Shown: positions 8,010-44,624, numbered from the stretch's first letter. The stretch: 64,000 nucleotides of DNA from an uncultured Lentisphaerota bacterium (GCA_900320225.1 ONRL01000015.1:24383-88382), one strand, 5' to 3'. Notes: generated from the sequence alone by a model not told the origin. Program-made: numbers and translations.

Positions 8010-8633
8010 ATGATGAAGATTGCCTTGACAGGCGGCATCGCCTGCGGCAAGAGCCTGTTTGCCAAGTTCCTTCGGGAACTTGGCATTCATGTTCTTGACG
8101 CTGACGACGTCGTCCATGAACTCGAAGCGCCCGGTGGCGCAGCCGTGTCGGCCATCGTTGCGCGCTTCGGCTCGGATGTCCTCGCGCCTGATGGCGGGAT
8201 CGACCGCGCGGCATTGGCCGCGCGCGTTTTTTCGGATCCTGCCGCCCGCGTCGACCTCGAGGCAATTGTTTTCCCATTGGTGCGTTCGCGCCTTCGGGAA
8301 AGCGGCACTCCTGCCGCTTCTCCTTCTCCCTCCTTCACCATTCACGTAATTCCTCTCCTTTTTGAGTCGCATTGGGAATCGGATTATGATATACTTCTCT
8401 GCATCGCCTCCCCGGTGGATTTGCAAATCAGCCGGATGATGCAGTCACGCGGTTATTCGCGTGCGCACGCGGAGGCACGTCTCGCGGCTCAATGGCCCGT
8501 GTCCGAAAAAGCGGCTCGATGCCATTACACCGTGATGAACGACTCCACACCCGAACACCTGAGGGACGAAGCCCAACGGCTCGTTGCCTGGTTGAAGGAG
8601 CAAATAGAGAATGAGTGCAGAAGAAAAGAATGA
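8010..8633 (+). CDS. coaE: dephospho-CoA kinase
   Basis: P-loop [20 protein letters not shown] motif; ~200 aa. Contains an in-frame palindromic insert (see repeat 8296-8330). Confidence 0.85.
8296..8330 (+). repeat. family-B palindromic element (GAAAGCGGCActccTGCCGCTTC) inserted in frame within coaE (encodes [12 protein letters not shown])
   Basis: same palindrome occurs intergenically at 41895-41925 and 46994-47025. Confidence 0.7.
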
Positions 8634-10491
8634 TCAGACCGCAGCGGAAGCCGCCGTGTCCACCGCAGGGAAAACCGCGAAGAAGGTTGCGACGACCAAG
8701 AAGAAACGTGGCCGTCCCACAAAGGCGGAGTTGGCTGCGCGTGCGGCGGGGACGCCTTCGCCCTCGTTGGAGAGCCCTCAACCGACAGCAAGTGTGCCGC
8801 CACAAGAATCCGCACCGGCTCCAACGGAGACAACGGGCACCCCGCCCGCTGCGGCCGCGACACGCGCGGCCTCGCCGGAGACCGCTCAACCGGCAGCAAG
8901 CGTACAACCGAAAGAATCCGTGCCGGCTTCGACTGAGACAACGGGCACCCCGCCCGCTGCGGCCGCGACAAGCGAGGCTCTCCCAAAAGTTTCTGCGCCT
9001 GCACAACCCACCGTTTCGCCTCCTGGCGAACAGCCGATGAGCAATCGGCAGCGGCGTCGTATGGAATGGCTTGCGCGCGCCGCGCAGCGTAACGGGAACC
9101 GGCCGAACTTCAAGGGCGGCAAGCATGTCCAGATGTTGCCGCAGGGCAACCGACGCCCGGCCTTTGAGGTTCCGCAGAATCTTCCGCCCCCCGTTCCCGC
9201 CGTGCCGCGCAACCCCGACTTGCCGGAGTACAACCTTCAGGACATCCATTCCTGGGACAACGGCGAGATCGTCGCGAAGATGTGGCCGGACGCGAACCCC
9301 GAGGACCTCGGCGCGATGAAGCGCCACGAAATCATCTTCGGTGCGATCCGCAGCTATCTCAACCGCGGCGGCGCCGTAATGGCCACGGGCTGCCTGGAAG
9401 TAGTGAAGGAAGGCTACGGCTTCCTCCGCAGCGCGAAGACGAACTTCCTCGCCTGCCCCGAAGACGTGTTCATCCCTCAGCAGCAGATCCGCCGCCACGC
9501 GCTCCGCACGGGCGACACCGTGGTGGGCCCGATCCGCGACCCGCGCGACAAGGACCGTTTCTTCGCGCTCGGCAACGTCGTGTCGGTGAACGGCAAGACG
9601 CCCAGCGAGGCGGCGCGAATCGTCCACTTCGAAAACCTCGTGCCGACATTCCCCACGCGCCGCATCATCCTTGAGACGACGCCGGGTGAATTCTCGATGC
9701 GCGTGGTCGATCTCTTTACGCCAATCGGCTTCGGGCAGCGCGGTCTCATCGTCGCGCCGCCGCGCGTCGGCAAGACGGTCCTTCTGCAGAAGATGGCGAA
9801 CGCCATCACGAAGAACCATCCTGACGCCGTCCTCATCGTGCTGCTCATCGACGAGCGTCCCGAGGAAGTGACGGACATGCAGCGCAACACGAAGGCGATG
9901 GTCCTCTCCTCCACGTTCGACGAGGAGCCGCAGCACCACGTGAACGTGGCGGAGATGGTGATCGAGATGTCGCGCCGCCAGGTGGAGAACGGCAAGGACG
10001 TGGTGATCTTGCTCGACTCTATCACGCGCCTCGCCCGCGCCTATAACACGGTGCAGCCGCACTCAGGCAAGATTCTCACCGGCGGCGTGGACGCCCTTGC
10101 CCTGCACCGTCCGAAGCGCTTCTTCGGCGCGGCGCGCAACATCGAGGGCGGCGGTTCGCTCACGATCATCGCCACCGGCCTGGTGGACACCGGTTCGCGT
10201 ATGGACGAGGTGATCTTCGAGGAGTTCAAGGGTACGGGCAACATGGAGTTGTGCCTCGACCGGGGCCTCGCCGACCGGCGCATCTTCCCGGCGATCGACA
10301 TCGACAAGTCCGGCACGCGCAAGGAGGATCTCCTGCTCGCGCCGCTGGAGCTGGAGAAGACCTGGGCGTTGCGCCGCGCGTTGTCCGACGCCGGTCCCGA
10401 ACGTGCCATGCAGACCGTGCTCGCCGGCATGAAGAAGTACAAGTCCAACCCCGAGTTCCTCCTTTCAATTGACACGAAGAACATCTACTAA
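8611..10491 (+). CDS. rho: transcription termination factor Rho with ~200-aa low-complexity N-terminal extension
   Basis: C-terminal RecA-like Rho core ([50 protein letters not shown]...DERPEEV). The Pro/Ala/Thr-rich N-terminus contains a ~105-nt direct duplication (8776-8990). Confidence 0.9.
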
Positions 10492-12319
10492 CCTGCAAGC
10501 TCGGCTCCTGCTGGTTGCCGCGTCGCTCCTGCTGGTTGCGCTCGTGTGGGCGCTCTTCCGCCAGACGGGGGGATTTGAGTTCCTTCGCCTTGACGATCCG
10601 GGCTACACGTATCTCTGCCCGTTCGTGAAGGACGGCTTGTCATGGGCGAACGTGCGCGAGGCATTCACGAACGTGCGGCACGAGGCCATCTGGATGCCCG
10701 TGACGAACATTTCCTACATGTGCGCCATCTCGCTGTTCGGTCCCGGTGCGGGCGCTCACCATCTCGTGAACGTCGCCATCCACGCGCTGAACGCGGTTCT
10801 GCTGCTGTGGTTGCTGGTCGCACTGGGACAACGGGCGTCTCGCCTGGTGACGGTCGCGTTCCTCCTCGCCGCCTTCTGGGCGCTCCACCCGCAACGCGTG
10901 GAGGCGGTGGCGTGGATCGCGAGCCGCAAGGAGCTGCTTTGCACCACGTTCGTCCTCGGGGGACTTCTCTGCTGGCTTCGCGCGCGGAGACGGGAGGGGT
11001 GGGGATGGATCCCTGCCTTGGCGGGCACGTATGCCTGTTACGCGCTGGCGTGCATGAGCAAGCCCACGGCGATGTGCTTCCCGTTCCTCGTGCTCGCGGT
11101 CGAGGGGATCTTGTGGCCGCGACAAACGCGCTCATCGCCTTTCTCCTTTGTCCTTTGTCAGTTGTCCTTCTTCCTTCTCATCGCTGCCGCCACAGGCGCG
11201 CTGGCGGTCTATTCGCAGACGCATCCCGAAGGCCATGCCGAGCTCGCGCTGTTCAGCGCGCCGCTGGGATGGCGCATCCTCAACGCCACCGTGTCCGTGG
11301 GGCTTTACATTTTCCAGATGTTCATTCCCGTGGGCATTCATCTTGATTACCGTGCCGTGCCGGGCGACTGGCCGCTCCACGGCGCGCTCGGGTTGGTGGT
11401 GCTGGCGCTTGCGGTGTCGGGAATTGGAGGGGAGTGGTGGTGGCGCCGCCGTACATGGCGGCGATCCGGACAGGGCGCCGACGCTGACCGCGCCACTCTT
11501 TTCCTCATGGGGGCGATTGGACTTTGGTTCTTCGCCTCGTTGGGGCCCACGCTGGGCATCTTCGGCAGTTTCGGCGAACATGCGCGCGCCGACCGCTTCC
11601 TCTACCTGCCCGCGATGGCCTTGCCCATCGGTGCGATGCTCTTGTGGGGGAGGCTCGGCTGCGAGGGAGGGTCGCGCTCCCGTGTCCTCGTATGGGGAGC
11701 CGCCGTCTCGGCGGCTCTGGTTGTGGCAGTCTCCTTCACGGTCGCCTATCCGGTCGTGGCGAGCTACCGCACGGACATGACGGCGTTCACGCGCACGTTG
11801 GCGGTCGACCCCGACAACTGGCGCGCGCTTGCACATGTCGGCGAGGCGCGTTGCGCCGCAGGCGATCTTGGCGCGGGCATCGACTTGTTGCGGCGCAGCC
11901 GCACGGTCCTGGCGCGCGACGCCACCGACGGGAAGTTGGCCTACGCGCTGATGCGCCGCGGACGCGCGGAGGATTGGGCGGAAATCCGCGACGTCTGCGC
12001 GGCCGTGGCGTCCAATCCCGCGCGCGACGCGCGCGGGCAGGCGTTGGAGGCGCTGGGCACGGCCGAGCTGGTGGCGCGGAACTGGGCGGATGCCGCCCGG
12101 TATCTGCTCTTCTCCATCAAAGCGCCGGCACGCCACTATTCATCTGCCGACGCCATCCTAAAGCTGGCTTTCGCGCAACACAATGGCGGACGGCGCGCGG
12201 ATGCGCGGAAACTTCTGGAGTGGGTTCGGGATAGTTCGGGGCGCGAAGACCTCGCCAAGCGGGCGCGGGAGGTGCTGTCGGTGCTCGAGTATTCGCCACG
12301 CGGGATGTTGTTTTGGTGA
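10469..12319 (+). CDS. polytopic membrane protein with C-terminal TPR repeats, PMT/ArnT/TMTC-like (GT-C fold glycosyltransferase-like)
   Basis: multiple TM helices, loop with DDPGY acidic motif, C-terminal TPR-like helical repeats; functional family assignment tentative. Confidence 0.45.
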
Positions 12320-12322
12320 GAG

Positions 12323-15208
12323 GTGTACATGGCAGATATCATCATAGAAGGTGCGAAAGTCCACAACCTGCGCGACATCGACGTGCGCATCCCGCGCAAT
12401 TCGCTGACCGTCGTGACGGGGCTCTCGGGGAGCGGCAAGTCCTCGCTCGCGTTTGACACGCTCTACGCCGAGGGACAGCGCCGGTACGTGGAGTCGCTGA
12501 GCGCGTACGCTCGCCAGTTCCTCGACCAGATGCAGAAGCCGGACGTCGAGCGCATCGAGGGGCTGTCCCCCGCCATCGCCATCGAACAGCGCACCTCCGG
12601 CGGTAACCCGCGTTCGATTGTGGCCACCGTCACGGAAATACACGACTATCTGCGTCTCCTCTACGGCAACGTGGGCGTGGCGCACTGTCCGAAGTGCGGC
12701 AAGCCCGTGCGCCGACAGAGCGCGGAGGAGATCGTGGAGTCGATCCTGAAGTTTCCCGCCGGATCGAAGTTGATCCTCTACGCGCCGGCGGTGAAAGGGC
12801 GCAAGGGCCGCCACGAGGAGACCTTGGCGGAGATCAAGCGGGCGGGTTTCGCGCGCGTGCGCGTGGATGGCGTCACCTACGCCCTTGAAGAGGTGCCTGC
12901 CCTCGACAAGAAGAAGAACCATTCAATCGACGTGGTGGTGGACCGTCTCGTGATTCCCGCCCCTGCCGATAGCAGTGATGGCCGAACGGCGTTCGGGCAA
13001 TTTACCACCCGCCTCACCGACTCCGTGGAGCTCGGCCTCAAGACCGGCAACGGCATCATCGTGGTGGAGCGAGTTGCGGACGCGCAGCAGCGCGTCCCTC
13101 CTGTGGTTTTCTCCGAGAAAAACGCCTGCCCCGACTGCGGCATCTCCTTCGACGAGCTGAAGCCGCGCAACTTCTCATTCAACTCGCCGTTCGGGGCGTG
13201 CCCGACGTGCGGCGGTCTCGGCTCCATCTTCTACTTCGACGAGGATCTCGTGATCCCCGACAAGACGCTCCCCCTCCGCGAATGCATACATCCCTGGCGT
13301 CGCGCCGGACACATGGCGATCATGTACTACAACGAGATCCTCTCGCGGATCGCCAAGCAGTACAAGGTGAAACTGGAGACGCCGTGGGAGAAGCTGCCCG
13401 CCAGTTTCCGCCACAAGCTGCTGCACGGCTTTGACGACGACCTCATCCTCCCCTGGCGCACGAACGACAAGCCCTTCGAGGGCGTGATGGCCACGCTCCA
13501 GCGCATGATGGAGCAGGCGGAGAGCGACGAGCGGCGCGAGAAGTTCGAGTCGTACCAGAGCGACCGGCCGTGTCCCGCGTGTCACGGCGCACGGCTCAAC
13601 CCCGTATCGTGCGCCGTCACGGTGGCGGGCAAGACGATCGTCGAGGTGATGGCGCTCCCCGTGAAGGACGCCCTGACGTTCTTCAAGGGACTGACCGGCG
13701 AGAAGTACGCCGTCGTGAAGGACGTCCTGAAGGAGATCGTGAAGCGGCTCGGCTTCCTCAACGACGTGGGCCTCGACTACCTCACGCTCGACCGGTCAAG
13801 CGGCTCGCTCTCCGGCGGCGAGATGCAGCGCATCCGCCTCGCCTCGCAGATCGGGAGCGGTCTCACGGGCGTACTGTACGTGCTCGACGAACCCACCATC
13901 GGCCTCCATCCCCGCGACAACGCGCGCCTGATCGCCACGCTGAAGGAGCTGCGCGACCGGGGCAACACCGTGGTGGTGGTGGAACACGACGCGGAGATGA
14001 TGCGCACGGCCGATTACATCGTGGATCTCGGCCCCGGCGCCGGCCGCGAGGGCGGCCGCGTGATGTATCAGGGCGATTTCAAGGGGCTCCTCAAATCCGG
14101 CACGCTCACGGCCGATTACCTCACCGGAAAGCGGCGGATCGAATCCGGCCGCGCAGGAGCGCGGCCCTCCCGCGGCGGTCAAGCTGAAGCGCGCCCCTCC
14201 CGCAGCAGTGATGGCCGAACTGCGTTCGGTCGATACCTCACCATCTCCGGCTGTACGCACCATAATCTCAAGAACGTCACGGCGAAGATCCCGCTCGGCA
14301 CCTTCACCGTGGTGACCGGCGTGTCGGGGAGCGGCAAATCCTCGCTCATCGACGAAACCTTGAAACGCGAGCTCATGCGCCGCTTCTACCACGCGAAGGC
14401 CGTGCCCGGCAAGTTCCGGAAGCTCACCGGCGTGGAGCACATCGACAAGGTGATCGAGATCGACCAGTCGCCCATCGGGCGCACCCCGCGCTCGAACCCC
14501 GCCACCTACGTGGGCTTCTTCAGCGACATCCGCGAGCTGTTCGCAAAGACCGAGGGCGCGAAGGCGCGCGGCTACACGGCGGGGCGCTTCAGCTTCAACG
14601 TGAAGGGCGGACGCTGCGAGACGTGCGGCGGCGACGGCGTGCGCAAGCTCGAGATGAGTTTCCTTCCCGATGTCTACGTGACGTGCGAGCAATGCAACGG
14701 GCGGCGCTTCAACAAGGAGACGCTCGAGGTCAAGTACGGCGGCAAGACGATTTCCGACGTGCTCGACATGACCGTCGCCGAGGCATACGAATTCTTCGCG
14801 AAGGTGCCGCGCCTCGCGGCGAAGCTGAAGACGCTTGTGGACGTGGGCCTCGGCTACATCGGCCTCGGACAGCCCGCGACGACGCTCTCCGGCGGCGAGG
14901 CGCAGCGCATCAAGCTCGCGACGGAACTCTCGCGCCGCTCGACGGGCCGCACGCTCTACCTCCTCGATGAGCCCACCACGGGCCTCCACTTCGACGATGT
15001 GGCGAAGCTCATGGCGCTCCTCCTCAAGCTGCGCGAAAGCGGCAACACCGTGGTCGTGATCGAGCACAACGTGGACGTGATGCGTTGCGCGGACTGGATC
15101 ATCGACCTCGGCCCCGGCGGCGGCGACGCGGGCGGCACGCTCGTGGCGGAGGGCCCGCCCGAGGCGATCCGTGCCAACCCGGCTTCCCTCACCGGCCGGT
15201 TCCTGTAG
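12323..15208 (+). CDS. uvrA: excinuclease ABC subunit A
   Basis: two ABC ATPase modules ([35 protein letters not shown]; [11 protein letters not shown]), zinc fingers CPKCG, CPDCG, CETCGG. Carries two in-frame palindromic inserts. Confidence 0.95.
12975..13003 (+). repeat. family-C palindromic element (GATGGCCGAACgGCGTTCGGGCAA) in frame within uvrA (encodes SDGRTAFGQ)
   Basis: related copies in uvrA (14208) and valS (25436, 25908), each translating to a D-G-[RQ]-T-[AV]-F-[GD]-[QR] peptide. Confidence 0.75.
14150..14234 (+). repeat. composite in-frame insert in uvrA: tandem duplicated REP-A fragment (reverse orientation) plus family-C palindrome (encodes [30 protein letters not shown])
   Basis: gagcgcggccctcccgcggc / gaagcgcgcccctcccgcagc duplication followed by gtgatggccgaactgcgttcggtcgat. 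The extra ~25 aa are judged, from memory of E. coli UvrA, to be absent from its linker. Confidence 0.7.
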
Positions 15209-15340
15209 GGGGCGGTGAGAGGAGTAGGAGTGGTGAGAGGAGTGGGATGTGAGAGAGGTGGGAGTTCCGCCCCCCCTCTGGCCCATCGCACGATTCTCAC
15301 CCCTCTCACCTCTCCCACTCCTCCCACCACAAGCCCCCAA
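15205..15340. repeat. long imperfect inverted repeat (purine-rich GGTGAGAGGAGT units, then the pyrimidine-rich complement) between uvrA and purL; terminator and/or MITE-like
   Basis: ggtgagaggagtaggagtggtgagaggagtgggatgtgagagaggtgggag ... ctcacccctctcacctctcccactcctcccacc. Confidence 0.6.
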
Positions 15341-15383
15341 ATTGTGCTATACTATTACTCTCCTGCAAGGAAAGCAAAAGACC

Positions 15384-18300
15384 ATGAAACCGATATTGAT
15401 GATGGGATCCGCGGCGTTCTCGCCGTTCCGCCTCGATGCCCTGCGCGCCGCCATGGCCGCAGCCGACTCCGCGTTCGCGGGCGCGAAGATCAACGCCCGC
15501 TGGGTGTACGCGATTGAACCCGAGGGCAAGGGCCCCGACGCCGAGACGCTCGCCCGCGCCGCGCTGCTGCTCAATGCGGATGGAGTGCAGAGTGCAGAGT
15601 GCTTAGTGCCGGGGACTGCACCCAGCACCCAGCACCAAGCACTCAGCACGTTCTACGTCACGCCGCGCAAGGGCACGATCTCGCCGTGGTCGTCGAAGGC
15701 TACCGACATCTTCCGCAACTGCGGTTTGAAGGGCATCGCACGCGTGGAGCGCGGCATCCGCTTCAACGTGTCGCCTGCAGTGCCGCCAGCGGCTCTCGGC
15801 GCGCTCTACGACCGCATGACAGAGGGCGTGTACACCGACCTCGACGACCTCTTCGACTGCCCACCGCCGAAGCCCGGCGTCACGTTCGACGTGCTCGGAC
15901 GCGGCGTGGAGGCGATCCGCGAGGCAAATGTCTCGCTTGGCCTCGCGATTAGCGAGCCCGAGATGCAGTATCTCGCCGAGAGCTTCAAGGCCGCCGGGCG
16001 CAATCCCACGGACACGGAGCTCGTGATGTTCGGACAGGTCAACTCCGAGCACTGCCGCCACAAAATCTTCGGTGCCCAGTTCATCATCGACGGGAAGAAG
16101 CAGAAGGACTCCCTCTTCGGGATGATCAAGAACACCCACAAGAAGAACGGAAAGGGCACGCTCGTCGCCTACAAGGACAACTCCTCGGTTGTGGAGGGTT
16201 TCGCCACGGAGATGTTCGCGCCGACGGCGGACCACGACTACCGCTTCAAGAAGGTGCAGCTCGACCAGCTCATGAAGGTGGAAACCCACAACCATCCCAC
16301 GGCGATTTCCCCCTATCCGGGCGCGGCCACGGGCGTGGGCGGCGAAATCCGCGACGAGGCGGCGACGGGCAGCGGTTCGCGCTCCAATGCGGGCATCTGC
16401 GGCTTCATGGTGAGCGACCTGCACATCCCCGGTTTCCCGCAGCCGTGGGAACGCGAGTACGCCGAGTTTCCGAAGCGTCTCGCCACGCCGCTCGCGATCA
16501 TGACCGAGGGGCCCATCGGCGGCGCGGCGTTCGGAAATGAATTTGGGCGTCCGCAGCTGACGGGCTTCTTCCGTACGTACGAGGGAGTGGCGGCGGGGCT
16601 TTACCGCGGCTACCATAAGCCCATCATGCTCGCAGGCGGACACGGCGTGATCATCCGCGACCAGGTGGAGAAAAAGCCGGTCAAGACCGGCGCGTACATC
16701 GTGCAGATCGGCGGGCCCGCCATGCGCATCGGCCTTGGCGGCGGCGCGGCGAGCTCGATGATGACCGGCACGAACGACGAGGCGCTCGACTTCAACAGCG
16801 TCCAGCGCGGCAACGCCGAGATGCAGCGCCGCTGCCAGGGCGTGATCAATGCCTGCGCGTCGATGGGGCGGAAGAACCCGGTCCTCTCCATCCACGACAT
16901 CGGCGCGGGCGGCCTTTCCAATGGCTGTCCCGAGCTCGTCGAGGCGACGGGCGGGAAGTTCTCGCTCCGCACGGTCCACAACGAGGAGCCCTCCATGAAC
17001 CCGATGGAGATCTGGTGCTGCGAGGCCCAGGAGCGCTACGTGCTCGCGCTGAGGCGCGACGCGCGCGCGTGGTTCGAGGAGCTGTGCGCCCGCGAGCGCT
17101 GCCCCGTGGCGTTCATCGGCGAGGCGACGGGCGACGGGCGGCTCATCCTTGAAGACGAGTACTTCCACGACCGTCCGATCGACATGGACATCCGCGTGCT
17201 GCTCGGCAAGCCGCCGCGCATGGTGCGCGACGTCACGCACGTGGCGCGCGCGCATGAACCGTTGAAGTTCGCCGGCGTCAAGCCGCAGGACGCGTTCTTC
17301 CGTCTCCTCCACCTGCCCACGATCGCCGACAAGACCTTCCTCGTGACGATCACCGACCGCAGCGTGACCGGCCTCGTCGCGCGCGACCAGATGGTGGGCC
17401 CGTACCAGCTGCCGGCGGCGGACTGCGCGGTGACGATGATGGGCTACAAGACGCTCCACGGCCAGGCCATGGCCACCGGCGAGCGCACGCCCGTGGCGCT
17501 CATCGACGCGCCGGCGTCCGGCCGCCTCGCCATCGCCGAGGCGCTCACGAACCTCGCCGCCGCCGACTGCGGCGACATCCGCAACGTGCGTCTCTCCGCG
17601 AACTGGATGGCGCCGTGCGGCGAGCCGGGCGAGGACGCGAACCTCTTCGACACCGTGAAGGCCGTGGGCCTCGATTTCTGTCCCGCGCTGGGCATCTCGA
17701 TCCCCGTGGGCAAGGACAGCTGCTCCATGCATACCACCTGGACCGACTCGAAGGGCAAGTCGCACAAGCAGGTGGCCCCGCTCTCGCTCGTCGTCTCCAG
17801 TTTCTCGCCCGTCGAGAACGTGCAGCGCACGCTCACGCCCGATCTCAAGCCGACGGCGTCGCAGCTCGTGTACGTTGATTTGAGCCAGGCGAAGTACCGC
17901 CTTGGCGGCAGCTGCCTCGCGCAGGTGTACAACCAGCTCGGCAACGAAAACGCGGATGCGGACGCGAAAACCCTGAAGGCGTTCTTCAACGCGATGCAGA
18001 AGATCGTGAAGGGCGGACTCGCACTCGCCTACCACGACCGTTCCGACGGCGGCCTCGCCGTGACGCTCGCCGAAATGGCGATCACCGGCGGCCGCGGCCT
18101 TGACGTGACCCTGCCCGACGGCGATGCGCTCGCCGTTCTCTTCTCCGAGGAGCCGGGCGCGGTGCTGCAGGTGGCGGACGACAAGCTGAAGGACGTGCTG
18201 GCCATCTTCCGCCGTGCGCGCCTCGGCGACTGCGTGCACGTGATCGGCGCGCCCACGGCCGATCGCGCCTTTACGGTCCATGTCGGGTGCCGTCGCGTTC

Positions 18301-19194
18301 TCGCGACGGACATCACCTCCATCCGCCGAGCGTGGAGCGAGACGACCTACCGCATGCAGGCGCTCCGCGACAACCCCGCCTCGGCGAAGGAGGAATACGA
18401 CAACGGCCTCGACGAGACCGACCCCGGCGCCCCGCATGGCCATCCTGCGCGAGCAGGGCGTGAACGGGCATATCGAGATGGCGGCGGCGTTCGCGCTCGC
18501 GGGTTTCGAGAGCGTGGACGTGCACATGACCGACCTCTTGGCGGGGCGCGTGGACCTTGCGGACTTCCAGGGCCTCGTCGCGTGCGGCGGTTTCAGCTAC
18601 GGCGACGTGCTGGGCGCGGGCAGCGGCTGGGCGCGGTCGATCCTCTTCAACCGCAAGCTCAAGGCGATGTTCAAGAAGTTCTTCCACCGGAAGGACACCT
18701 TCTCGCTCGGCGTGTGCAACGGCTGCCAGATGCTGTCGCAGCTCAAGGACATCATCCCCGGCGCCGAGGCGTGGCCGGAGTTCAAGCGCAACATCTCCGA
18801 GCAGTTCGAGGCGCGCTACTGCACGCTCGAGGTGCTCGAGTCGCCGTCGATCTTCTTCAAGGGCATGGCGGGGAGCCGCATTCCGATCGCCGTTGCGCAC
18901 GGCGAAGGGCGCGCGGTGTTCCCGGATGGCGTCGATGCCGCGAAGGCGAAGGCGGCGCTCCGCTACGTGGACGGCCGCGGCAACCCGACGGAGCGCTATC
19001 CGTGGAACCCGAACGGCTCGGCGGGCGGTCTCACGTCGTTCACGACGCGCGACGGACGCGCCACGATCATGATGCCGCACCCGGAGCGCGGCTTCCGCGC
19101 CGCGCAGCTCAGCTACAATCCGGGCGTGTTCACCGGCGAGGCCGGTCCTTGGATGCGCATGTTCCGCAATGCCTACGCCTTCGCAACCCGCTAG
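15384..19194 (+). CDS. purL: phosphoribosylformylglycinamidine synthase (large single-chain PurL) with apparent 1-nt frameshift near 18425-18440 before the C-terminal glutaminase domain
   Basis: N-terminus [20 protein letters not shown] matches the PurL N-domain. The glutaminase domain ([18 protein letters not shown]...[24 protein letters not shown]...GVCNGCQM) is only in a shifted frame. The switch lies at the C-run gaccccggcgccccgcatgg. Also carries an in-frame palindromic insert. Confidence 0.85.
15584..15650 (+). repeat. family-D imperfect palindromic insert (GTGCAGAGTGCAGAGTGCTTAGTGC...GCACCCAGCACCCAGCACCAAGCACTCAGCAC) in frame within purL (encodes [23 protein letters not shown])
   Basis: the two halves are reverse complements built from GTGCWGAGTGC units; low-complexity peptide interrupts a conserved region. 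Confidence 0.6.
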
Positions 19195-19300: not shown

Positions 19301-19534
19301 ATGAGTGAAGAGCAGAAGAAAGAGACGACGTTCGAGCAGTCGCTCGCGCGGTTGGAGCGGATTGTCTCCGAGATGGAGGGTGGGACGTTGCCCCTCGACG
19401 ACATGATTAAGCGCTTTGAGGAGGGCCGTACGCTCGTGGCCGAATGCACGAAGCAGCTGGAAGGCATCCGCCAACGCATCGAGAAGGTCACTTCCGCCGT
19501 TCCGCCCGCTGTGGAGCCCCTGAACATTTTATGA
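19301..19534 (+). CDS. xseB: exodeoxyribonuclease VII small subunit
   Basis: 77 aa, FEQSLARLERIVSEMEGGTLPLDDMIKRFEEGRTLVAECTKQLEGIRQRIEKV. Confidence 0.85.
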   Translation: MSEEQKKETTFEQSLARLERIVSEMEGGTLPLDDMIKRFEEGRTLVAECTKQLEGIRQRIEKVTSAVPPAVEPLNIL

Positions 19535-20664: not shown

Positions 20665-20667
20665 GAG

Positions 20668-22260
20668 ATGTTCGCGGCCTTGGCCAACAATCCGTGGAGC
20701 AGCACGTGGAACCTCCTTTCGGACGGCGTCGCGATTCTCATCATCGCGGTGCTGTTGTTGCTCGGCGTTCTGGTTGGCTATGCGCTGCGCGGACTCGTCG
20801 GCCGTTGGCGGGCGGAGACCATTGAAAAGCGGATGCGCCTGCGCGAGGAGGAGAGCGAAAGCGAGATCAAGGCGAAATTGAAGGAGGCGGACATCGCCGC
20901 GCGCGCCGCCGTCGTGCGGGCGAAGGAGGAATTCGACGTGTCCGCGAAGAAGCGCCGCGCCGAACTCCAGTCCGTCGAAGACCGCCTCTCGCAGCGTGAA
21001 AACATGCTGGACCGGCGCGCCGAACAGCTGGACGAGAAGGTCGCCGCCGTGGAGGCGAAGCAGGCCGCCGTCACGGCGGCCGCGGAGAAGGCGGCGGCGG
21101 ACGCCGCCACCGCCGACAAGCGGTTGAAGGACCTCGCGAAGATGACCCACGAAGAGGCCCGCCGCGAGATCCTCACGCGCGCGAACGCGGAACTCCGCGC
21201 CGACGCGGCCATCCTTTCCCGCCGCATCCAGGAGGCCGCGCGCGAACAGGGCGAGACGATTGCCCAGCGCCTTGTGGCGGACGCCATCCAGCGATGCGCC
21301 GTCACGCACCTGAACGAGCTCGCGACGACGGCGGTACAGCTGCCGACTCCGGAAATGAAGGGCCGCATCGTCGGGCGCGACGGCCGCAACGTGCGCGCGT
21401 TCGAGGCGGCGACGGGCGTGACGCTTCTGCTGGACGACGCGCCGGACACGGTCGTGCTCTCCGCGTTCGATCCCCTGCGCCGCGAAATCGCCCGCCGCGC
21501 GCTGACGGCCCTGATCGCCGACGGGCGCATCCACCCCGCGTCGATCGAGAGCGCGGTGGCGACCGCGCGCGACCAGATATCGGTCGCGAACGAGGAGGCG
21601 GGGACGGCCGCGGCCGCCGAGGCCGGCGTGCCCGGGCTTCCCGCCGACGTGCTGCGCCTCATGGGCACGCTCGCCTTCCGCACGTCCTTCACGCAGAACG
21701 TCCTGCGCCATTCCGTGGAGGTGGCGCTCCTCATGGGCACGATGGCGGCGGAGATGGGCCTTGACGCCGCACGTGCCCGGCGCATCGGTTTTCTGCACGA
21801 TGTCGGCAAGGCGATCACCGCCGAGAAGAAAGGCGCGCACGCCGTCTTGGGTGCCGAGTTCCTGAAATCCCACGGCGAGGCCGACGCGGTGTGCGCGGCC
21901 GTCGCCGCCCACCATTCGGATCCCGGCACGGACGGCGGCGTGTACGGCGTGCTCTGCTCGGCGGCGGACGCGATCTCGTCCGCACGGCCCGGCGCGCGCC
22001 AGGAGAGCCTCGGCGACTACGTGCAGCGCCTCGAGACGATCGAGAAGCTGGCGCGCGCGCACAAGGGCGTCGTGAACGTCTACGCCGTGCAGGCCGGGCG
22101 CGATCTCCGCGTGCTGGTGGATCCCGACGTCCTTCCGGACGCAGACATCCCGACCCTTGCCGGGGAAATCTGCCGAGACATCTCAAACCAGCTGAAGTTC
22201 CCGGGCCTCATCCGCGTGACGGTCATTCGGGAACTTCGGTGCGTGGAGTATGCGAAGTAA
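20668..22260 (+). CDS. rny: ribonuclease Y
   Basis: N-terminal TM helix, coiled coil, KH domain (GRIVGRDGRNVRAFEAATGV), HD domain (HSVEVALLMGTMAAE...GFLHDVGKA...HH). Confidence 0.85.
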   Translation: MFAALANNPWSSTWNLLSDGVAILIIAVLLLLGVLVGYALRGLVGRWRAETIEKRMRLREEESESEIKAKLKEADIAARAAVVRAKEEFDVSAKKRRAELQSVEDRLSQRENMLDRRAEQLDEKVAAVEAKQAAVTAAAEKAAADAATADKRLKDLAKMTHEEARREILTRANAELRADAAILSRRIQEAAREQGETIAQRLVADAIQRCAVTHLNELATTAVQLPTPEMKGRIVGRDGRNVRAFEAATGVTLLLDDAPDTVVLSAFDPLRREIARRALTALIADGRIHPASIESAVATARDQISVANEEAGTAAAAEAGVPGLPADVLRLMGTLAFRTSFTQNVLRHSVEVALLMGTMAAEMGLDAARARRIGFLHDVGKAITAEKKGAHAVLGAEFLKSHGEADAVCAAVAAHHSDPGTDGGVYGVLCSAADAISSARPGARQESLGDYVQRLETIEKLARAHKGVVNVYAVQAGRDLRVLVDPDVLPDADIPTLAGEICRDISNQLKFPGLIRVTVIRELRCVEYAK

Positions 22261-22288
22261 AGAAACCCAACAACAAAAGAGGTAGAAA

Positions 22289-24070
22289 ATGATCAAGAAA
22301 ATCGTGAGCGTTAGCGTGGGCGCGGCCGTCTGGGCGGTCTTCGCCGCCGAGGGAGTCCGACCCCAGCCCGAACTCATTGGGACGGTCGAGATAGCCGCTT
22401 TCTCGGATTTCCAGAAGAAGGTCGTAGACCTTGGAACGACCATCAACAATCCCGCCGCGCCGATGCTGGCCGTTCCGGCGGTGCAGAGCATGCTGACGGA
22501 ACAGTTCGGGAAGTTCCGGCAGGATGCGGCGATGAAACTTCTGTGCTATGCGAACGTGGCGGCTCTCCGCAAGGCGATCGTAGAGGACGGGGACGACGAT
22601 ATCGATGACGCCTTCGAGGCCGCGTTCCTCTATCCCTGCGCCGAGGGGGCGGATGCATTCCTCGTCAACCACCCCGAAGCGAAGAAGTCCGCGGACGGCG
22701 TGATCGAACTGGAGGACGGCAACGTGGCCCTGTTCGCGCCAGACGGCCGTACATGCGCATTCGCCTCGAACGCCGGCGCCGCGAAGCGGGCGCTGGCCGC
22801 CGCCCCCGCGCCGACGGCGTGTCCGCTGATCCGCATGAATGTCACGGAAGTCGGTCTCGGGCTTCTGGCCGACCTCCACCAGAAACTGGCCGCCAGCCAG
22901 GAGAGCCTGGCTCAGGTTGCGGGAGGCACGAACGAGACCGATCGCCTCGTCTCGTCGTGTCTGAAGTTCCAGCAGGCGCAGATGAAGCGGCAGAACGCGG
23001 TCCTCCGCATGTTCGCGCAGGCAACGATGAGCATGGATCTGGACGAGACGGGGTTTGTTGTCAAGGGCTCGGTGACGGCGAAGCCGGGCGTGGCCGTCTC
23101 GCCCGCCGCCGGGTTCAAGTTGCCCGCAGGCGTGCTGGACGCCGTTCCCGCGAAGGCGCCGTTGTTCGGCGCGGCGAACCCCTTCCTCTACGCGAACATC
23201 CACAGCGAACAGGAGTACCGCGCCTTGCTCGGCGAGGTACGCGATCTCGTCGATTACCTGTTTGCCTGCTTGCGGCAGAAGACCCCCGATTACGTGCAGG
23301 TGGTGGATGGCCTTCGCGCGGCGATTGCCGACCTGCTGACGACGGCTCCGTGTCCCGGCCCGGCCGACTGGGCCGTGGGCGCGCTTGCCTTCGGACCGCG
23401 GCAGGAACCGTATCTGCTCCAATTCGGTGAGAGCGCGACGGCGACCCAGGGCCGTGAAGTGGCCGTCCGTTTCTACGCGGCCCTGGCGGATGCCATCGGG
23501 AAGAAGTGGCCGGGCATCCTCCTCGCGAACGACGCGACGCTGTCCCTGGACTGGGCTCGTTTGATTGACGTCGTCGCCGCCGCATCTGGCGCGACGCAGG
23601 AGGAGCAGGCTCAGGTGGTTGCCGCGAAGGAGAACGTGGCTGCGATTCTGGGCGGGACGGTGAGCGAAGCCTCCACCGTGATGCCGACTCCGACGACCTA
23701 TCGCACGTTTGTCGGCACAAAGGGCTTCACGCCCCCCGCGGCGGCGCCGGCGGGCGAGCGGCGCTTCGCGGCCGCGGTGCCAGAAGCCGCCGCCAACCGT
23801 CCGGGCGGCGTGTTCTACCTGTCGCTGTACGCGCTCGTGCGCGACAACGTCCTGCCGCTTGTCGTCAAGGTCCTGCCCAAGCAGAAGACGGCGCAGTTCC
23901 AGGCAATCGTGTCCGCGTTGCCGCCCGCCGGCGCGAACGGCGCGATCGCGGGGGCGACCTGGTATGAGAAGAACGGTTCGTGCAGCTTCCTGCTGCGTGT
24001 CACGAAGGACGAAATCCGGAACTACGGCGCGGCAGCCAACGCGATCATGTCCGCGCAGATGGCGGAATAG
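22289..24070 (+). CDS. secreted hypothetical protein
   Basis: signal-peptide-like N-terminus (MIKKIVSVSVGAAVWAVFAAEG), Ala-rich, no recognisable motifs. Confidence 0.45.
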   Translation: MIKKIVSVSVGAAVWAVFAAEGVRPQPELIGTVEIAAFSDFQKKVVDLGTTINNPAAPMLAVPAVQSMLTEQFGKFRQDAAMKLLCYANVAALRKAIVEDGDDDIDDAFEAAFLYPCAEGADAFLVNHPEAKKSADGVIELEDGNVALFAPDGRTCAFASNAGAAKRALAAAPAPTACPLIRMNVTEVGLGLLADLHQKLAASQESLAQVAGGTNETDRLVSSCLKFQQAQMKRQNAVLRMFAQATMSMDLDETGFVVKGSVTAKPGVAVSPAAGFKLPAGVLDAVPAKAPLFGAANPFLYANIHSEQEYRALLGEVRDLVDYLFACLRQKTPDYVQVVDGLRAAIADLLTTAPCPGPADWAVGALAFGPRQEPYLLQFGESATATQGREVAVRFYAALADAIGKKWPGILLANDATLSLDWARLIDVVAAASGATQEEQAQVVAAKENVAAILGGTVSEASTVMPTPTTYRTFVGTKGFTPPAAAPAGERRFAAAVPEAAANRPGGVFYLSLYALVRDNVLPLVVKVLPKQKTAQFQAIVSALPPAGANGAIAGATWYEKNGSCSFLLRVTKDEIRNYGAAANAIMSAQMAE

Positions 24071-24088
24071 ACGGAAACAAAGAAGGAA

Positions 24089-26733
<2,645 letters not shown>

Positions 26734-26744
26734 GAGGTGGCATC

Positions 26745-27950
26745 ATGCAGACCGTCACAAACCAGATCAAGCAGTCAATGGCGGGATCCAGCTGGATCCG
26801 CAAGATGTTCGAGAAGGGCCTTGAACTGAAGAAACGCTACGGCGCGGACGCCGTGTGCGACTTCTCGCTCGGCAACCCCGACGTGCCGCCGCCCGCGAAG
26901 ACGAAGGAAGTCCTGGAGGGCCTCGCCGCGAAGGCGATCGAGCCGCTCGGCCTCGGCTACTGTCCCAACGCCGGCATCCCCGCCGTGCGCGAGGCGATCG
27001 CCGCCTATCTCTCGAACCAGCAGCAAACCGACGTGAAGCCCGGCAACGTGGTGATGACCGTCGGCGCCGCCGGCGCGCTCGTGGCGTTCTTCCGCGCCGT
27101 GATCGAGCCGGGCGACGAGGTGCTGTGCCCCGCGCCGTACTTCGTGGAGTACGGCAGCTACTGCGGACACTTCGGCGGCGTCCTGAAGGCGGTGGACTCG
27201 AAGCCCGACGAGGGCTTTCTGCCCGACTTCGACGCGATGGAGAAGGCCATCGGCCCGAAGACGCGCGCGATTCTCGTCAATTCCCCGAACAACCCGACGG
27301 GCTGCATCTACGCGGCCGAGGACATGGCGCGCCTCGCGGCGATCGTTGACCGCGTAAACGCGGCGCGCGAAGCGGAAGGGGGGCGTCCGCTCTTCCTCCT
27401 CAGCGACGAACCCTACCGCGCGTTCGCCTACGACGGCGCGACGGTGCCGGCCGTCCTGCCGCTCACGCCCTACGCCGTCGTGCTCGGCTCGTTCTCGAAG
27501 ACGCTCTCCCTCGCGGGCGAGCGCATCGGCTACCTGGCGATCGGGTCCGCGATGCCGGACGGCGACACGCTCATCAACGCCGTCACGCTCACGAACCGCA
27601 CGCTCGGGTTCGTGAACGCGCCGGTGCTCGGTCAGCGTCTTGCGGCCGCGCTCCTTGACCAGACCGTCGACCTCGAGATCTACGACCGCCGCCGCAAGTT
27701 GATGGCGAAGGTGCTGTCCGACGCGGGCGTCGACTTCGTGATGCCGAAGGGCGCGTTCTACTTCTTCCCGAAGGCGCCGGGCGGCGACGACCTCGCGTTC
27801 GTGGACGCCTTGCAAGACGAGCGTATCCTCGTGGTGCCCGGACGCGGCTTCGGCATGGCCGGCCACGTGCGCCTTTCGTGCAGCGTGGACGAGGCGATCA
27901 TCGCGCGCAGCGCGGAGGGTTTCAAGCGCGCCGTCGCGAGGTGCCGATGA
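26745..27950 (+). CDS. PLP-dependent aminotransferase, class I/II (AspC/AlaT-like)
   Basis: ~400 aa, NPDVPPP...SPNNPTGCIY...SFSKTLSLAGERIGY (Lys in SFSK as PLP site). Confidence 0.8.
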   Translation: MQTVTNQIKQSMAGSSWIRKMFEKGLELKKRYGADAVCDFSLGNPDVPPPAKTKEVLEGLAAKAIEPLGLGYCPNAGIPAVREAIAAYLSNQQQTDVKPGNVVMTVGAAGALVAFFRAVIEPGDEVLCPAPYFVEYGSYCGHFGGVLKAVDSKPDEGFLPDFDAMEKAIGPKTRAILVNSPNNPTGCIYAAEDMARLAAIVDRVNAAREAEGGRPLFLLSDEPYRAFAYDGATVPAVLPLTPYAVVLGSFSKTLSLAGERIGYLAIGSAMPDGDTLINAVTLTNRTLGFVNAPVLGQRLAAALLDQTVDLEIYDRRRKLMAKVLSDAGVDFVMPKGAFYFFPKAPGGDDLAFVDALQDERILVVPGRGFGMAGHVRLSCSVDEAIIARSAEGFKRAVARCR

Positions 27951-29221
27951 AACGCGCGTTGGGAAGGGTTGCGCTTGTCGCGGCCTTGGCATGCGCCGCA
28001 GAGCCGTCGCGCGCTCCGATGGAATGGGCGAGCGTGCATCCGGAAGCCATTGCCGCGTGGAAGGCCGCAAACCACGCGCCGGACGGCGTGGCCGTGGACG
28101 TCGCAGCCCGCACCGTGCGGATTCTGGTGGAGGCGACGGGCCTTGGGCCGGCGGATACGGCGGAGTTCTTCGCCATCGGTCCGCTCTCCGACCGCGCCTA
28201 TGAATCGTTTTTCGTGACGGTTGCCTCCCCGGCGGCGATTGCCGACGCAATTGAGCGCGCGGGCGTGCCGCGCGGCGTACCGCCGGACATCGCGGGCGCG
28301 CGGCTGTGGCCGTGCGGCGAGAAGCTCACGCTCTCCGCCACGCCGGTCTCCACGAACACGCCGGGAGGGTCGCGCTCCTGCGCGACCGCCCTTTCCTTCC
28401 CCGACCTGCTCGTCGACACGGCGGAGAAGGAGGAAGGTGCGATTCTGTCCGCGCCGGTCGTCTACACGGGCGGCGCGCGCGACGCGTCGGGCGCCGTCGT
28501 GGCCGCCACGAACATCCCGTGCGCCGTATTTGCGCTCTACAGCCACACGCCGTCGCTTCTGCAGCTGAACGGACGGTTCGACCAGTCGACGGTGTACGGG
28601 CGCTTCCGCGCGAAGAAGGTGTGGCCGGCGGGTTCGCTGTTTGAGCTGGCGCTGAGGTGGGACGGCCGCACGACCGTGCTGCGCCGGGACGTGGAGCTAA
28701 CCGTTCCCGCGCTGAAGGAGAAGTTGACGGCGCTCCGCGCGGACGCCGCCGCGCACGACCTGTTCGTGCGGATGTCGTTTGGCGAGGGGGTGACCGTGGG
28801 CGAGGCGGCGGAGATCGCACAGGCGCTATCGCTCGTGGACGGCAAGGGCCTGAAGATGGACGGTCCGATGCCGGGGCAGTTCTTCTTCCGTGCCTTCCTG
28901 CCGGATTCCGCATGGCGCGCGCGCCCGGGCCGTCTCTTCCAGCCGTTCGAGGTGCATGTGGCGGCCGACGGCGCGAAGAAGTTCGTGTTCGTGGAGGAGG
29001 ACTGGTCGGGCGAGGGCCTGGATCCCGTGCTCAAGCCGAAGGAGACGCCGTTCGCGGAGTGGGCGGAACTGCCCAAGCTGATCGCGCAGACGGGCGAAAA
29101 AGGGGCGAAGATCAACGTGCTCTTCCTCTTCGCGCCGAAGGCGACGCCCGTCTCCGCGCTCACGCCCGCCGTCTCCGTCCTGGGCGATCGCATCGGCACG
29201 TTCTACGTCTTCGGCGAATAG
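27947..29221 (+). CDS. secreted hypothetical protein carrying an in-frame REP-A element
   Basis: ATGA overlap with aminotransferase stop; signal peptide MKRALGRVALVAALACAAEP. REP-A copy at 28360-28390 translates as NTPGGSRSCATALSF. Confidence 0.5.
   Translation: MKRALGRVALVAALACAAEPSRAPMEWASVHPEAIAAWKAANHAPDGVAVDVAARTVRILVEATGLGPADTAEFFAIGPLSDRAYESFFVTVASPAAIADAIERAGVPRGVPPDIAGARLWPCGEKLTLSATPVSTNTPGGSRSCATALSFPDLLVDTAEKEEGAILSAPVVYTGGARDASGAVVAATNIPCAVFALYSHTPSLLQLNGRFDQSTVYGRFRAKKVWPAGSLFELALRWDGRTTVLRRDVELTVPALKEKLTALRADAAAHDLFVRMSFGEGVTVGEAAEIAQALSLVDGKGLKMDGPMPGQFFFRAFLPDSAWRARPGRLFQPFEVHVAADGAKKFVFVEEDWSGEGLDPVLKPKETPFAEWAELPKLIAQTGEKGAKINVLFLFAPKATPVSALTPAVSVLGDRIGTFYVFGE
28360..28390 (+). 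repeat. REP-A palindromic element (CCGGGAGGGTCGCGCtcctGCGCGACCGCC) inside a coding sequence
   Basis: identical to intergenic copies at 42878, 42961 and near-identical at 42832, 44663, 46960. Confidence 0.8.
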
Positions 29222-44612: not shown

Positions 44613-44624
44613 TTCCCCCGCGCG

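Follow-up and report, generated by a model that had tools for sequence, protein, structure and literature searches.

The palindromes that lie in frame inside conserved genes of this DNA are best read as REP-type hairpin elements of a rumen Kiritimatiellae lineage, which are likely mobilised by a RAYT-like enzyme and are retained by selection in permissive linkers. We put the probability of this reading at roughly 0.7. The window, which is the whole stretch of 64,000 nucleotides that was analyzed, carried palindromes of several families in uvrA, valS, coaE, purL and the gene of a hypothetical protein, as the first-pass annotation had claimed, and no reading frame was broken by them. The 64 kb contained four copies of family C, three of family B and six to seven of REP-A. 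The features are listed below with their window coordinates and strand.

8010..8633, +, coaE (dephospho-CoA kinase), host of a family B copy; Pfam PF01121, E = 7e-47
8291..8324, +, family B hairpin, in frame in coaE; DNA fold -11.1 kcal/mol, z = -5.4
12323..15208, +, uvrA, host gene with hot spots at aa 213-226 and 606-632; PDB 2r6f match, E = 0
12971..13000, +, family C copy 1 at uvrA site 1, a 6-nt tail followed by the 24-nt palindrome
14147..14172, -, REP-A copy in uvrA site 2, read GRAGARPSR, stem GGCCGCGC/GCGCGGCC with a compensatory change
14183..14203, -, partial duplicate of the 3' part of that REP-A copy, read …EARPSRSS, seen directly in the sequence
14204..14233, +, family C copy 2 at uvrA site 2
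15249..19194, +, purL (large FGAR amidotransferase), host gene; Pfam
~15586..15652, +, family D, GTGCNNA-type repeats that form a long, imperfect hairpin within the purL frame; z = -4.3 for a fold of -19.6 kcal/mol
24089..26733, +, valS, host gene; Pfam, PDB 1gax
25433..25462, +, family C copy 3 (GGTCAAAC/GTTTGACC variant) at valS site 1, DGQTVFDQ after the zinc-ribbon motif CPKCG
25904..25933, +, family C copy 4 at valS site 2, DGQTAFGQ
27947..29221, +, hypothetical protein with a signal-peptide-like N-terminus, host of REP-A; 266 homologs found
28359..28389, +, REP-A copy in frame, TPGGSRSCAT
41890..41923, +, family B copy, intergenic; pattern match and repeat similarity
42832..42990, +, three REP-A copies in an intergenic hairpin cluster
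44663..44693, +, REP-A copy, intergenic
46900..47180, +, intergenic mosaic of five to six different hairpins, including a REP-A variant and family B (46990-47023)

When up to two mismatches were allowed, the pattern GATGGYCRAACNGYGTTYGRYCAA matched family C at 12977, 14210, 25439, and 25910, all on the + strand of the 64-kb window. These were four matches compared with 0.00 expected from dinucleotide shuffles. All four copies were intragenic, two in uvrA and two in valS, as had been annotated earlier with coordinates 2-3 nt too low. Each palindrome was read in the frame of its host gene, giving DGRTAFGQ and DGRTAFGR in UvrA and the two listed octapeptides in ValRS, so that the translations agree with the earlier claim of one similar peptide in two unrelated proteins. 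The unit of about 30 nt consists of AG-M-W-T-T-GAT, an 8-bp stem (GGCCRAAC), the loop TGN, the return stem GTTYGGCC and AA (consensus nnAGnnTTGATGGCCGAACTGnGTTCGGCCA), and it forms a hairpin with a stem of 8-9 bp and a 3-nt loop. Neither a GTAG nor a CGTC tetranucleotide was present in this consensus, and Rfam returned no match. When folded as single-stranded DNA, REP-A, family B, the purL element and three of the four family C copies were more stable than shuffled sequences (z of -2.9 to -5.4); the remaining copy, at 14210, was not (z -1.6).

Family B was located with GAAGCGGCANNNNTGCCGCTTC at 8299 (in coaE, with one mismatch), 41898, and 46998, the latter two being intergenic as previously described, while no match was expected. 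Its copies were 85-91% similar across 34 nt, and its stem measured 8-9 bp compared to 8 bp in REP-A. The pattern GGGAGGGTCGCGCTCCTGCGCGACC matched REP-A at 28359, inside ORF 27947-29221, and at the intergenic positions 42832, 42878, 42960, and 44663. Families A and B thus form intergenic clusters besides their genic copies. A CA-rich low-complexity tract follows the hairpin mosaic at 46900..47180. The reverse REP-A fragment reported in uvrA, with a partial duplicate after it, and the family D element reported in purL were both recovered. In relatives, peptides of the family D kind (VPSAEC…ALGTKH) occupied both UvrA sites and the second valS site, and the family B element was translated in another frame (GEAALSPL) in the purL of relatives. 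Heptamer-repeat hairpins of the HEPR/VVRD and VPSAEC types could come from slippage without a transposase.

The two hot spots of uvrA were compared with related loci. At site 1, the syntenic loci L001, L002, and L005 were shorter by 24 nt and the gap coincided with the core at 12977-13000, which is a clean presence/absence difference; this length does not fit the 30-nt unit unless a further 6-nt change occurred. The AF2 pLDDT was below 50 at aa 216-221, within an otherwise confident domain. At site 2, the composite of reverse REP-A and family C was also found in L001, L002, and L018, and the partial REP-A duplicate was missing from L001 and L002. In L003, which was 97% identical overall, a CACGAAC-repeat segment replaced family C copy 2. 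The fold of the whole 101-nt composite at site 2 was indistinguishable from those of shuffles (z -0.85). Both sites were alignment gaps relative to the UvrA of G. stearothermophilus (2r6f), of about 12 and 19 residues; the extension of the linker proposed earlier was therefore present, and its size of ~25 aa had been somewhat overstated.

Among 80 UvrA homologs, a clade diverging by no more than 3% outside the sites displayed all combinations of site-1 and site-2 states, each site being empty or filled by family C or by other hairpin families. Site 2 of P0057, P0059, and P0062 read MAELCSAKK. Since such near-identical relatives differ in the content of the sites, the segments are recent insertions rather than ancestral peptides. 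No target-site duplication emerged when filled sites were compared with empty ones, family C being a single hairpin, and no target-site rule, target motif or excision footprint could be derived for it from the compared sites.

The other host genes gave a similar picture. The copy at valS site 1 was shared with L053 (RUG12514) and missing from distant orthologs; no close empty allele was found, and other Kiritimatiellae had a different segment without a zinc ribbon at this place. Site 2 of valS was polymorphic among close orthologs and missing from distant ones, being filled in L013, L044, L047, L053, L072, and L076, half filled in L079 and occupied by another hairpin family in L080. The coaE orthologs in L001 and L005 had no family B-derived segment, and this insert too was polymorphic in close orthologs and missing in distant ones. 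The inserts of purL likewise differed between relatives. The REP-A insert at 28359 was present in some orthologs of 85-93% identity, lacking in others, and missing in distant orthologs. The earlier view that the peptides were inserted is thus upheld by presence/absence at uvrA, coaE, REP-A, and valS site 2, and by distant orthologs only at valS site 1. Frameshifting deletions were found in purL at 18427/18428, which leaves the GATase part in the frame of ORF 18280-19194, and in valS (34 nt, at 26127/26128), with the C-terminal part in ORF 25978-26733; both sit away from the hairpin elements.

That the palindromes recur elsewhere, as anticipated, was seen in a scan of a genome collection. Family C occurred in 73 loci, about 52 of them in Kiritimatiellae-type rumen or gut MAGs (about 25 MAGs), and the remaining loci were single matches in unrelated taxa. 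With the strict pattern, a MAG contained at most about nine matches (RUG14821, RUG12514). About 65-70 of the 79 Kiritimatiellae-type copies lay in long open frames and about 10 appeared intergenic; the closest relatives, over about 160 kb, had family C copies within uvrA and valS only and none between genes. Further hosts were leuS, the linker of metG, purF, and a dehydratase. Across about 30 independent sites, other frames of the element were also read, including MAELCSA and AERSSAI. The stem showed covariation in the MAG copies: pair 8-18 was GC in 46, AT in 16, GT in 1, and AC in 0, and pair 6-20 was CG in 51, TA in 6, CA in 3, and TG in 3, the last two making six mismatches. This covariation was absent in the 21 family C matches from unrelated taxa. 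Moreover, the 5' tail had A at -6 in 32 of 37 independent sites and G at -5 in all 37, and these two positions lay outside the scan pattern.

Because family C is translated in several frames and its stem carries compensatory changes, it is a nucleic-acid element at the DNA level and not a peptide motif. The four window copies do share frame, orientation, and nearly the same peptide, as would be expected if the octapeptide were a protein-level motif, ancestral or convergently selected, whose DNA palindromy is incidental. However, the peptide was missing from close as well as distant orthologs, two other frames of the same DNA were translated elsewhere, and the compensatory changes preserved the stem but not the peptide (R to Q, G to D). 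These findings contradict the protein-level motif, which we consider extremely improbable.

The scan also revealed a candidate mobiliser. Thirteen scan loci, about one quarter of the Kiritimatiellae-type family C loci, encoded a protein of 350-470 aa with HUH (VMPDHVH) and Tyr (ERYIAYNP) motifs; the link is one of co-location only, and the scan was baited with the family C repeat itself. The motifs VMPDHVHFN and ERYIAYNP were invariant. The protein matched NCBIfam NF047646 (REP_Tyr_transpos) with E = 1e-13 and 51 bits, below the curated cut-off of 80. It had no Pfam match and no PDB match by phmmer, and one homolog had been named RayT by JGI. The structural model had a mean pLDDT of 52 and was confident for residues ~20-115 only; the top 30 Foldseek matches were all IS200/IS605 or TnpA_REP (Y1) transposases, with 4er8 among them. 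An additional domain at the C-terminus, conserved and about 200 aa long, had no family match. In 11 of 11 mapped loci, the loop that separates the HUH and Tyr motifs contained an inward-facing pair of family C copies, and a further copy was located at the 3' end of the gene in 6 of these. In the 109 homologs, both loop copies were found in 79 and at least one copy in 105. The MAG RUG12514 held both the RAYT-like gene (L064) and a valS with both copies of the window type (L053); within the 64-kb window no RAYT-like gene was present. From the sequences, the gene with family C inside and beside it in related rumen MAGs supports a REP/RAYT system.

We therefore propose the following course of events. 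A putative lineage-specific RAYT-like HUH/Y1 enzyme would probably move family C with the single-stranded hairpin as its substrate, in the manner of IS200/IS605 and E. coli TnpA_REP enzymes. New copies may insert anywhere, and those surviving in essential genes would be stop-free, have a length that is a multiple of three, and lie in a flexible linker or loop. Since selection would leave only tolerable copies, the same few permissive linkers would be struck repeatedly by several families, namely two in UvrA, two in ValRS, several in PurL, and one in CoaE. Resident hairpins would then duplicate, lose parts or be replaced, and recombination would shuffle them between strains. The outcome would be hypervariable linker peptides that are by-products of a DNA element and are probably neutral. 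The other families (A, B, D, and the heptamer hairpins) presumably spread likewise.

Hairpins could alternatively arise and turn over locally by replication slippage or template switching and spread by gene conversion or homologous recombination, the RAYT-like gene being a mere decorated host. The inserts at the same sites are indeed often hairpin-forming heptamer or nonamer repeats, such as CACGAAC (HEPRTTNHEPR), SGKSGKSGK and the EDCRLKS…NPQSSI type. The partial duplication within uvrA site 2 of the window, the free mixing of site-1 and site-2 states in near-identical UvrA proteins, as recombination would give, and the lack of a target-site duplication or target motif in the compared sites point in the same direction. 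However, slippage cannot put the same sequence of 24-30 nt with a conserved 5' tail into about 30 unrelated sites of many genes and genomes, nor does a local origin account for the concentration of the repeat in and beside one HUH/Y1 transposase-like gene, with 105 of 109 homologs decorated, or for the intergenic clusters of families A and B. We consider a purely local origin unlikely.

The first-pass annotation had likened the palindromes to Rickettsia palindromic elements (RPEs), reportedly described by Ogata and colleagues in 2000. RPEs are palindromic repeats that lie in frame in functional genes and add peptide segments to unrelated proteins. The parallel holds for the behaviour, i.e., insertion in frame with an intact ORF and absence from orthologs, whereas the host phyla differ and RPE-1 is about 100-150 nt long compared with 24-65 nt for the Kiritimatiellae elements, and kinship in sequence is not expected. 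We know of no dedicated transposase for RPEs, and the present elements are better described as REP-type with a RAYT-like transposase. The short RPE-4 and RPE-6 of R. conorii are themselves CGTC-type REPs (PMC3733652).

Intragenic REP behaviour is not new, since intragenic GTAG/CGTC REPs were catalogued in 2013, including those in uvrA of O. terrae and in tRNA synthetases (Di Nocera, De Gregorio, and Rocco, 2013, BMC Genomics 14:522; PMC3733652). These are in-frame stem-loops in ORFs, present as singles, dimers or groups and encoding about 7-80 aa, with DNA-repair genes and tRNA synthetases as preferred hosts; the authors argued that they are tolerated because they lie in flexible linkers (PMC3733652). 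Both uvrA genes of O. terrae have two inserts each, and the REP dimer of Oter_3168 at aa 224-239 (PMC3733652) lies in the same UvrA linker as the Kiritimatiellae site 1. This shared linker, the stem-keeping compensatory changes, and the position of insertion sites at domain junctions of UvrA, ValRS, MetRS, and PurL would also fit hairpins kept as useful mRNA structures (translation pausing at domain boundaries, transcript protection) or DNA structures (supercoiling, recombination), with an adaptive linker position. However, close relatives have an empty site or an unrelated insert, so no particular hairpin is required, and recognition of the hairpin by a transposase predicts stem conservation equally. 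A useful hairpin is quite improbable in our view.

Returning to REP-type elements spread by a RAYT-like enzyme, families C, B, and A resemble known REPs as short G+C-rich stem-loop palindromes, with compensatory substitutions in the stem of family C. In contrast to the GTAG/CGTC REPs, family C has neither tag and bears a conserved 5' tail (AG..TTGAT), its host is Kiritimatiellae, and its copies are mostly intragenic in the sample rather than extragenic; several families compete for the same sites, and strain-level turnover is visible from metagenomes. The unlike tag, the mostly intragenic copies, the strain-level turnover at hot spots, and the transposase gene with its own in-frame REP pair look less ordinary. 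Tentatively, this may be an unusual REP/RAYT variant, which is possible without being the favoured case, in which a transposase-like gene with its own in-frame hairpin pair is host, possible master copy, and possible self-regulator, and mostly genic repeats are gained, lost, and swapped at a few essential-enzyme linkers on a strain time-scale. If so, this gain, loss, and swapping would create hypervariable protein linkers in a natural gut population.

REP/REPIN-RAYT systems ("REPtrons") are said to have been described by Nunvar in 2010, Bertels and Rainey in 2011, Ton-Hoang in 2012, and Messing in 2012 (PDB 4er8). Similarly to these, a single-copy HUH/Y1 transposase-like gene of the related MAGs is co-located with one short-hairpin family dispersed in the same genomes, with inverted (REPIN-like) pairs and a hairpin with a conserved single-stranded 5' tail. 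The differences are that the cognate hairpins lie inside the transposase ORF (between HUH and Tyr, and at the C-terminus), not merely beside it, and that the protein has the extra C-terminal domain and scores under the curated RAYT cut-off. Nunvar (2010) and Bertels and Rainey (2011) are both cited in the 2013 catalogue (PMC3733652). In structure, the N-terminal domain was closest to the IS200/IS605 enzymes ISDra2 and IS608 TnpA (Foldseek E = 6e-5 to 1e-3); the HUH motif is shared, and the tailed hairpin may be likened to their hairpin recognition with a short 5' guide or target sequence. Unlike in IS200/IS605, tnpB is absent and no left and right ends delimit an IS-like unit; the repeat, about 30 nt long, is a solitary hairpin. 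Bacterial MITEs that insert in frame, such as Correia/NEMIS (reviewed in PMC10969869), are likewise small non-autonomous repeats able to land in ORFs; MITEs, however, measure 70-300 bp and have terminal inverted repeats and target-site duplications, neither of which was seen in family C.

These observations suggest that REP-type hairpins can colonise coding DNA at scale outside Rickettsia and proteobacteria, and that the same flexible linkers of UvrA, aminoacyl-tRNA synthetases, and PurL serve as landing pads in distant lineages. Since the clade is present in thousands of rumen metagenome assemblies, it offers a natural population for measuring the gain, loss, and replacement of intragenic repeats, and the candidate transposase comes with a defined 30-nt substrate for in vitro work. 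In practice, length variation in PVC genomes is inflated by the insert sites, which also break assemblies and disturb the alignment of orthologs. The UvrA homologs ranged from 932 to 1053 aa in length, and the alignment of purL with four relatives revealed at least six variable insert sites.

Based on its sequence, we assigned the window to a Kiritimatiellae bacterium of the PVC group. The nearest UvrA homologs, with up to 98% identity, were named "MAG: … Kiritimatiellae bacterium" and came mostly from ruminant gut assemblies. The G+C content of the window was ~65% up to ~47 kb. A generic inverted-repeat listing was discarded because it was dominated by chance GC-rich palindromes, and a perfect-stem scan of the window was used in its place. 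Among the host genes, the CoaE, PurL, and ValRS domains were confirmed by Pfam, and the identities of UvrA and ValRS were confirmed against the structures 2r6f and 1gax, respectively. The elements were located as follows.

8299, + strand: family B, in coaE
12977, + strand: family C, in uvrA
14147-14172, reverse: REP-A copy, within uvrA
14210, + strand: family C, in uvrA
25439, + strand: family C, in valS
25910, + strand: family C, in valS
28359, 42832, 42878, 42960, and 44663: REP-A copies
41898, + strand: family B, intergenic
46998, + strand: family B, intergenic

The first-pass annotation had reported palindromes lying in frame within housekeeping genes, and this was confirmed: four matches of family C and three of family B, including the one in coaE, were found, while shuffled sequences gave an expectation of zero for each. 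In each of the four family C copies, the reading frame of the host gene encodes DG[RQ]T[AV]F[GD][QR]. When folded as single-stranded DNA, most hairpins were more stable than shuffled sequence, with z from -2.9 to -5.4, while the family C copy at 14210 (z -1.6) and the whole composite at the second uvrA site (z -0.85) were no more stable than shuffles. An Rfam search at the element positions matched no family. In addition, intergenic mosaics resembling BIME-like clusters were seen at 42830-43020, 44620-44790, and 46900-47180, with four to six different hairpin families per row and a CA-rich stretch of low complexity (CACCCACC…AACCAACC) after each mosaic. The hypothetical ORF 10469-12319, whose orthologs range from 591 to 669 aa, contained at 11649-11717 part of a REP-A-like segment (GGGAGGGTCGCGCTCCCG) and, separately, a perfect hairpin (GAGCCGCCGTCTCGGCGGCTC); both are probably additional intragenic elements.

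The distribution of family C was then determined with the pattern TGATGGYCRAACNNNGTTYGRYCA, one genome being searched per species. The scan returned 73 loci, of which ~52 fell in ~25 rumen or gut MAGs of the Kiritimatiellae type, several of these with 5-9 matches; the remaining loci were single matches in unrelated taxa. In the MAG copies, the degenerate stem positions covaried with Watson-Crick pairs kept (GC 46, AT 16, GT 1, AC 0), and a second stem pair was CG in 51 and TA in 6 cases, with 6 mismatches. The matches in unrelated taxa showed no stem covariation. These compensatory changes replaced R with Q and G with D in the encoded peptide. Across ~30 independent sites, family C occurred in three of its six reading frames, one of them reverse (AERSSAI); the frame counts are approximate, because calling coding frames from ORF length and GC3 mistakes a frame for the antisense one, R2 calls in fact representing F0. 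Likewise, family B in purL of the relatives was read in a different frame from that in coaE. The hosts of family C included leuS, the linker of MetRS, purF, a sugar dehydratase, a multi-pass membrane protein, and large secreted proteins. Representatives of the independent sites shared AG at -6/-5, positions that the scan pattern did not cover, and the unit is therefore ~30 nt, or ten codons. As single-stranded DNA, its sequence is AGATTTGATGGCCGAACTGCGTTCGGCCAA, and a peptide or read across the junction of an insert would contain …SSADGQTVFDQDPDV…. A MITE was rejected, since the element is a single hairpin and no duplication distinguished filled from empty sites.

The 120 UvrA homologs with 80-98% identity ranged from 932 to 1053 aa, and in their alignment the length variation fell mostly within site 1, which spans query aa 213-226, and site 2, which spans aa 606-632. 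Homologs with 92-94% identity to the query carried …PAAADPSFTTRL… at site 1; others had …SDDGRTEFGQF… there, and still others had segments of 25-45 aa such as EFVVRDS…HEPRTTNHEPR. At the DNA level, this site showed a clean 24-nt difference among syntenic loci of five relatives. Site 2 held at least six kinds of segment, including reverse REP-A with family C, GRAVAPRPP…ARAGRAPYQ, HEPRTTNHEPR, VPSAECLVPSAE…ALGTKH, and EDCRLKS…NPQSSI, and read MAELCSAKK in a sister clade. In a neighbor-joining tree of UvrA with both sites masked, every combination of states occurred within a clade differing by at most 3% elsewhere. Site 1 may have been filled once and then lost repeatedly, or filled several times. 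We sought a target-site rule for the insertions, and none could be derived. Both sites were gaps in the alignment to 2r6f, one within the UvrB-binding domain and the other in the linker joining the two ABC halves. This placement relies on the sequence alignment in place of the AF2 model, which was built with 39 close homologs and was poor (mean pLDDT 45); its only usable feature was a drop in pLDDT at precisely aa 216-221, within an otherwise confident domain (130-260).

The other host genes varied in the same manner. The coaE segment was missing from two relatives (L001 and L005) and longer in a third (L004), and purL had at least six variable sites of this sort. The second valS site carried family C in seven lineages, was half-filled in one, and held another family in one; the copy at the first site was common only to the window and one relative (L053). 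The metagenome scan for valS gave only two close relatives (L079 and L080), the remainder being ~55% identical, and both inserts were absent from distant orthologs. Moreover, orthologs of the hypothetical protein with 85-93% identity differed in whether they carried its REP-A segment. The interpretation of the palindromes as inserted elements was thus supported, since the peptides vary among close orthologs and the element recurs in relatives. An ancestral peptide was rejected, as the inserts vary between near-identical UvrA proteins and are absent from distant valS orthologs.

Two of these essential genes were also broken in the window sequence, within 10 kb of each other. At 18427-18428, purL lacked the conserved "GLTFKLTYEPD" codons and an adjoining variable insert relative to four syntenic relatives; the frame is shifted, and the glutamine amidotransferase domain carries on in ORF 18280-19194. 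This deletion, which coincides with one hypervariable insert site, may reflect either misassembly or a genuine pseudogene. The second was valS, where a 34-nt deletion at 26127-26128 relative to L053 and L079 removed the conserved "DVYWKALRLLH" and shifted the frame, leaving the C-terminal part of ValRS in ORF 25978-26733; misassembly or a genuine frameshift may likewise account for it.

A candidate mobilizer of family C was suggested by its sequence context in the relatives. Thirteen scan loci each contained one gene for a protein of 350-470 aa with the invariant motifs VMPDHVHFN (HUH) and ERYIAYNP, here called RAYT-like. It matched the NCBIfam model "REP-associated tyrosine transposase" with E = 1e-13, under the curated cut-off, and the top 30 PDB matches of the confident N-terminal part of its AF2 model were all IS200/IS605 and TnpA_REP transposases. 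Pfam, phmmer against PDB, and a profile against PDB (E = 0.5 to ISDra2) yielded little, so that the informative evidence was the NCBIfam and fold searches only. One homolog had been named RayT by JGI. In 11 of 11 mapped loci, the loop that separates the HUH and Tyr motifs contained an in-frame, inward-facing pair of family C copies, and six of the 11 had an extra copy at the 3' end of the gene. A protein-similarity search gave 109 homologs, of which 105 carried one or two of the loop copies and 79 carried both; the loop ranged from 7 to 102 aa. The related rumen MAG RUG12514 encoded a RAYT-like gene at L064 and, at L053, a valS bearing the two family C copies of the window. The 64-kb window contained no such gene, and the link with family C is therefore drawn from relatives and co-location only. 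The RAYT-like proteins (L063:3607-4788, L064:2170-3375, and homologs P0121-P0240) also had a conserved C-terminal domain of ~200 aa (…GYVIISGFISKGEQAVRDML…ILPSCIPNRRFRPES…), which matched no Pfam or NCBIfam family; the AF2 model is unreliable past residue ~115 and of low confidence in this domain.

In the proposed mechanism, a Y1 transposase, working on single-stranded DNA, would spread the REP-type hairpins; this first step was inferred. Selection then keeps solely the in-frame, stop-free copies in flexible linkers, and the settled hairpins afterwards duplicate, decay, and are replaced, with recombination shuffling them. This filtering and turnover of the inserts emerged from the comparisons between relatives. 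In one relative 97% identical overall (L003), a CACGAAC-repeat segment occupied the second uvrA site where the window has the REP-A/C composite. For the heptamer-repeat hairpins, slippage plus recombination is a plausible, purely local origin, but such an origin fails to explain family C.

The phenomenon of intragenic REPs was already known, since GTAG/CGTC REPs of this kind have been catalogued (Di Nocera et al., 2013; PMC3733652). They were most numerous in Opitutus terrae, also of the PVC group, and in R. conorii, where they correspond to RPE-4 and RPE-6, and their preferred hosts were repair genes and tRNA synthetases (PMC3733652). Both uvrA genes of O. terrae carry two inserts each, and Additional file 3 lists a REP dimer in the UvrA Oter_3168 (999 aa) at residues 224-239 (PMC3733652), in the same linker as our site 1. 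Compared with those REPs, the tag of family C differs from GTAG/CGTC, its copies are biased to intragenic locations, several hairpin families compete at identical sites, and a REP pair sits inside a RAYT-like ORF with an extra C-terminal domain.

Further features were observed in the window. The secretin ORF 4686-8006 contained tandem 45/48-nt repeats at 4797-5294 encoding AEAKPAEKPAEPAPV, and its orthologs ranged from 968 to 1211 aa. The longest ORF of Rho (8611-10491) was 626 aa, compared with 476-485 aa called in relatives, where Rho starts several hundred bases downstream of coaE; its upstream part probably either escapes translation or forms an N-terminal extension of variable length or sequence. 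Finally, the region 47482-63458 had a low G+C content (43-50% compared with 65%) and the look of a defence island, with genes for a C5 DNA methylase, a HATPase protein, DUF2971, an AAA_5 (McrB-like) protein, DUF2357 with PD-(D/E)XK (McrC-like), an AAA_21/AAA_15 ATPase, and GmrSD_N with HNH.
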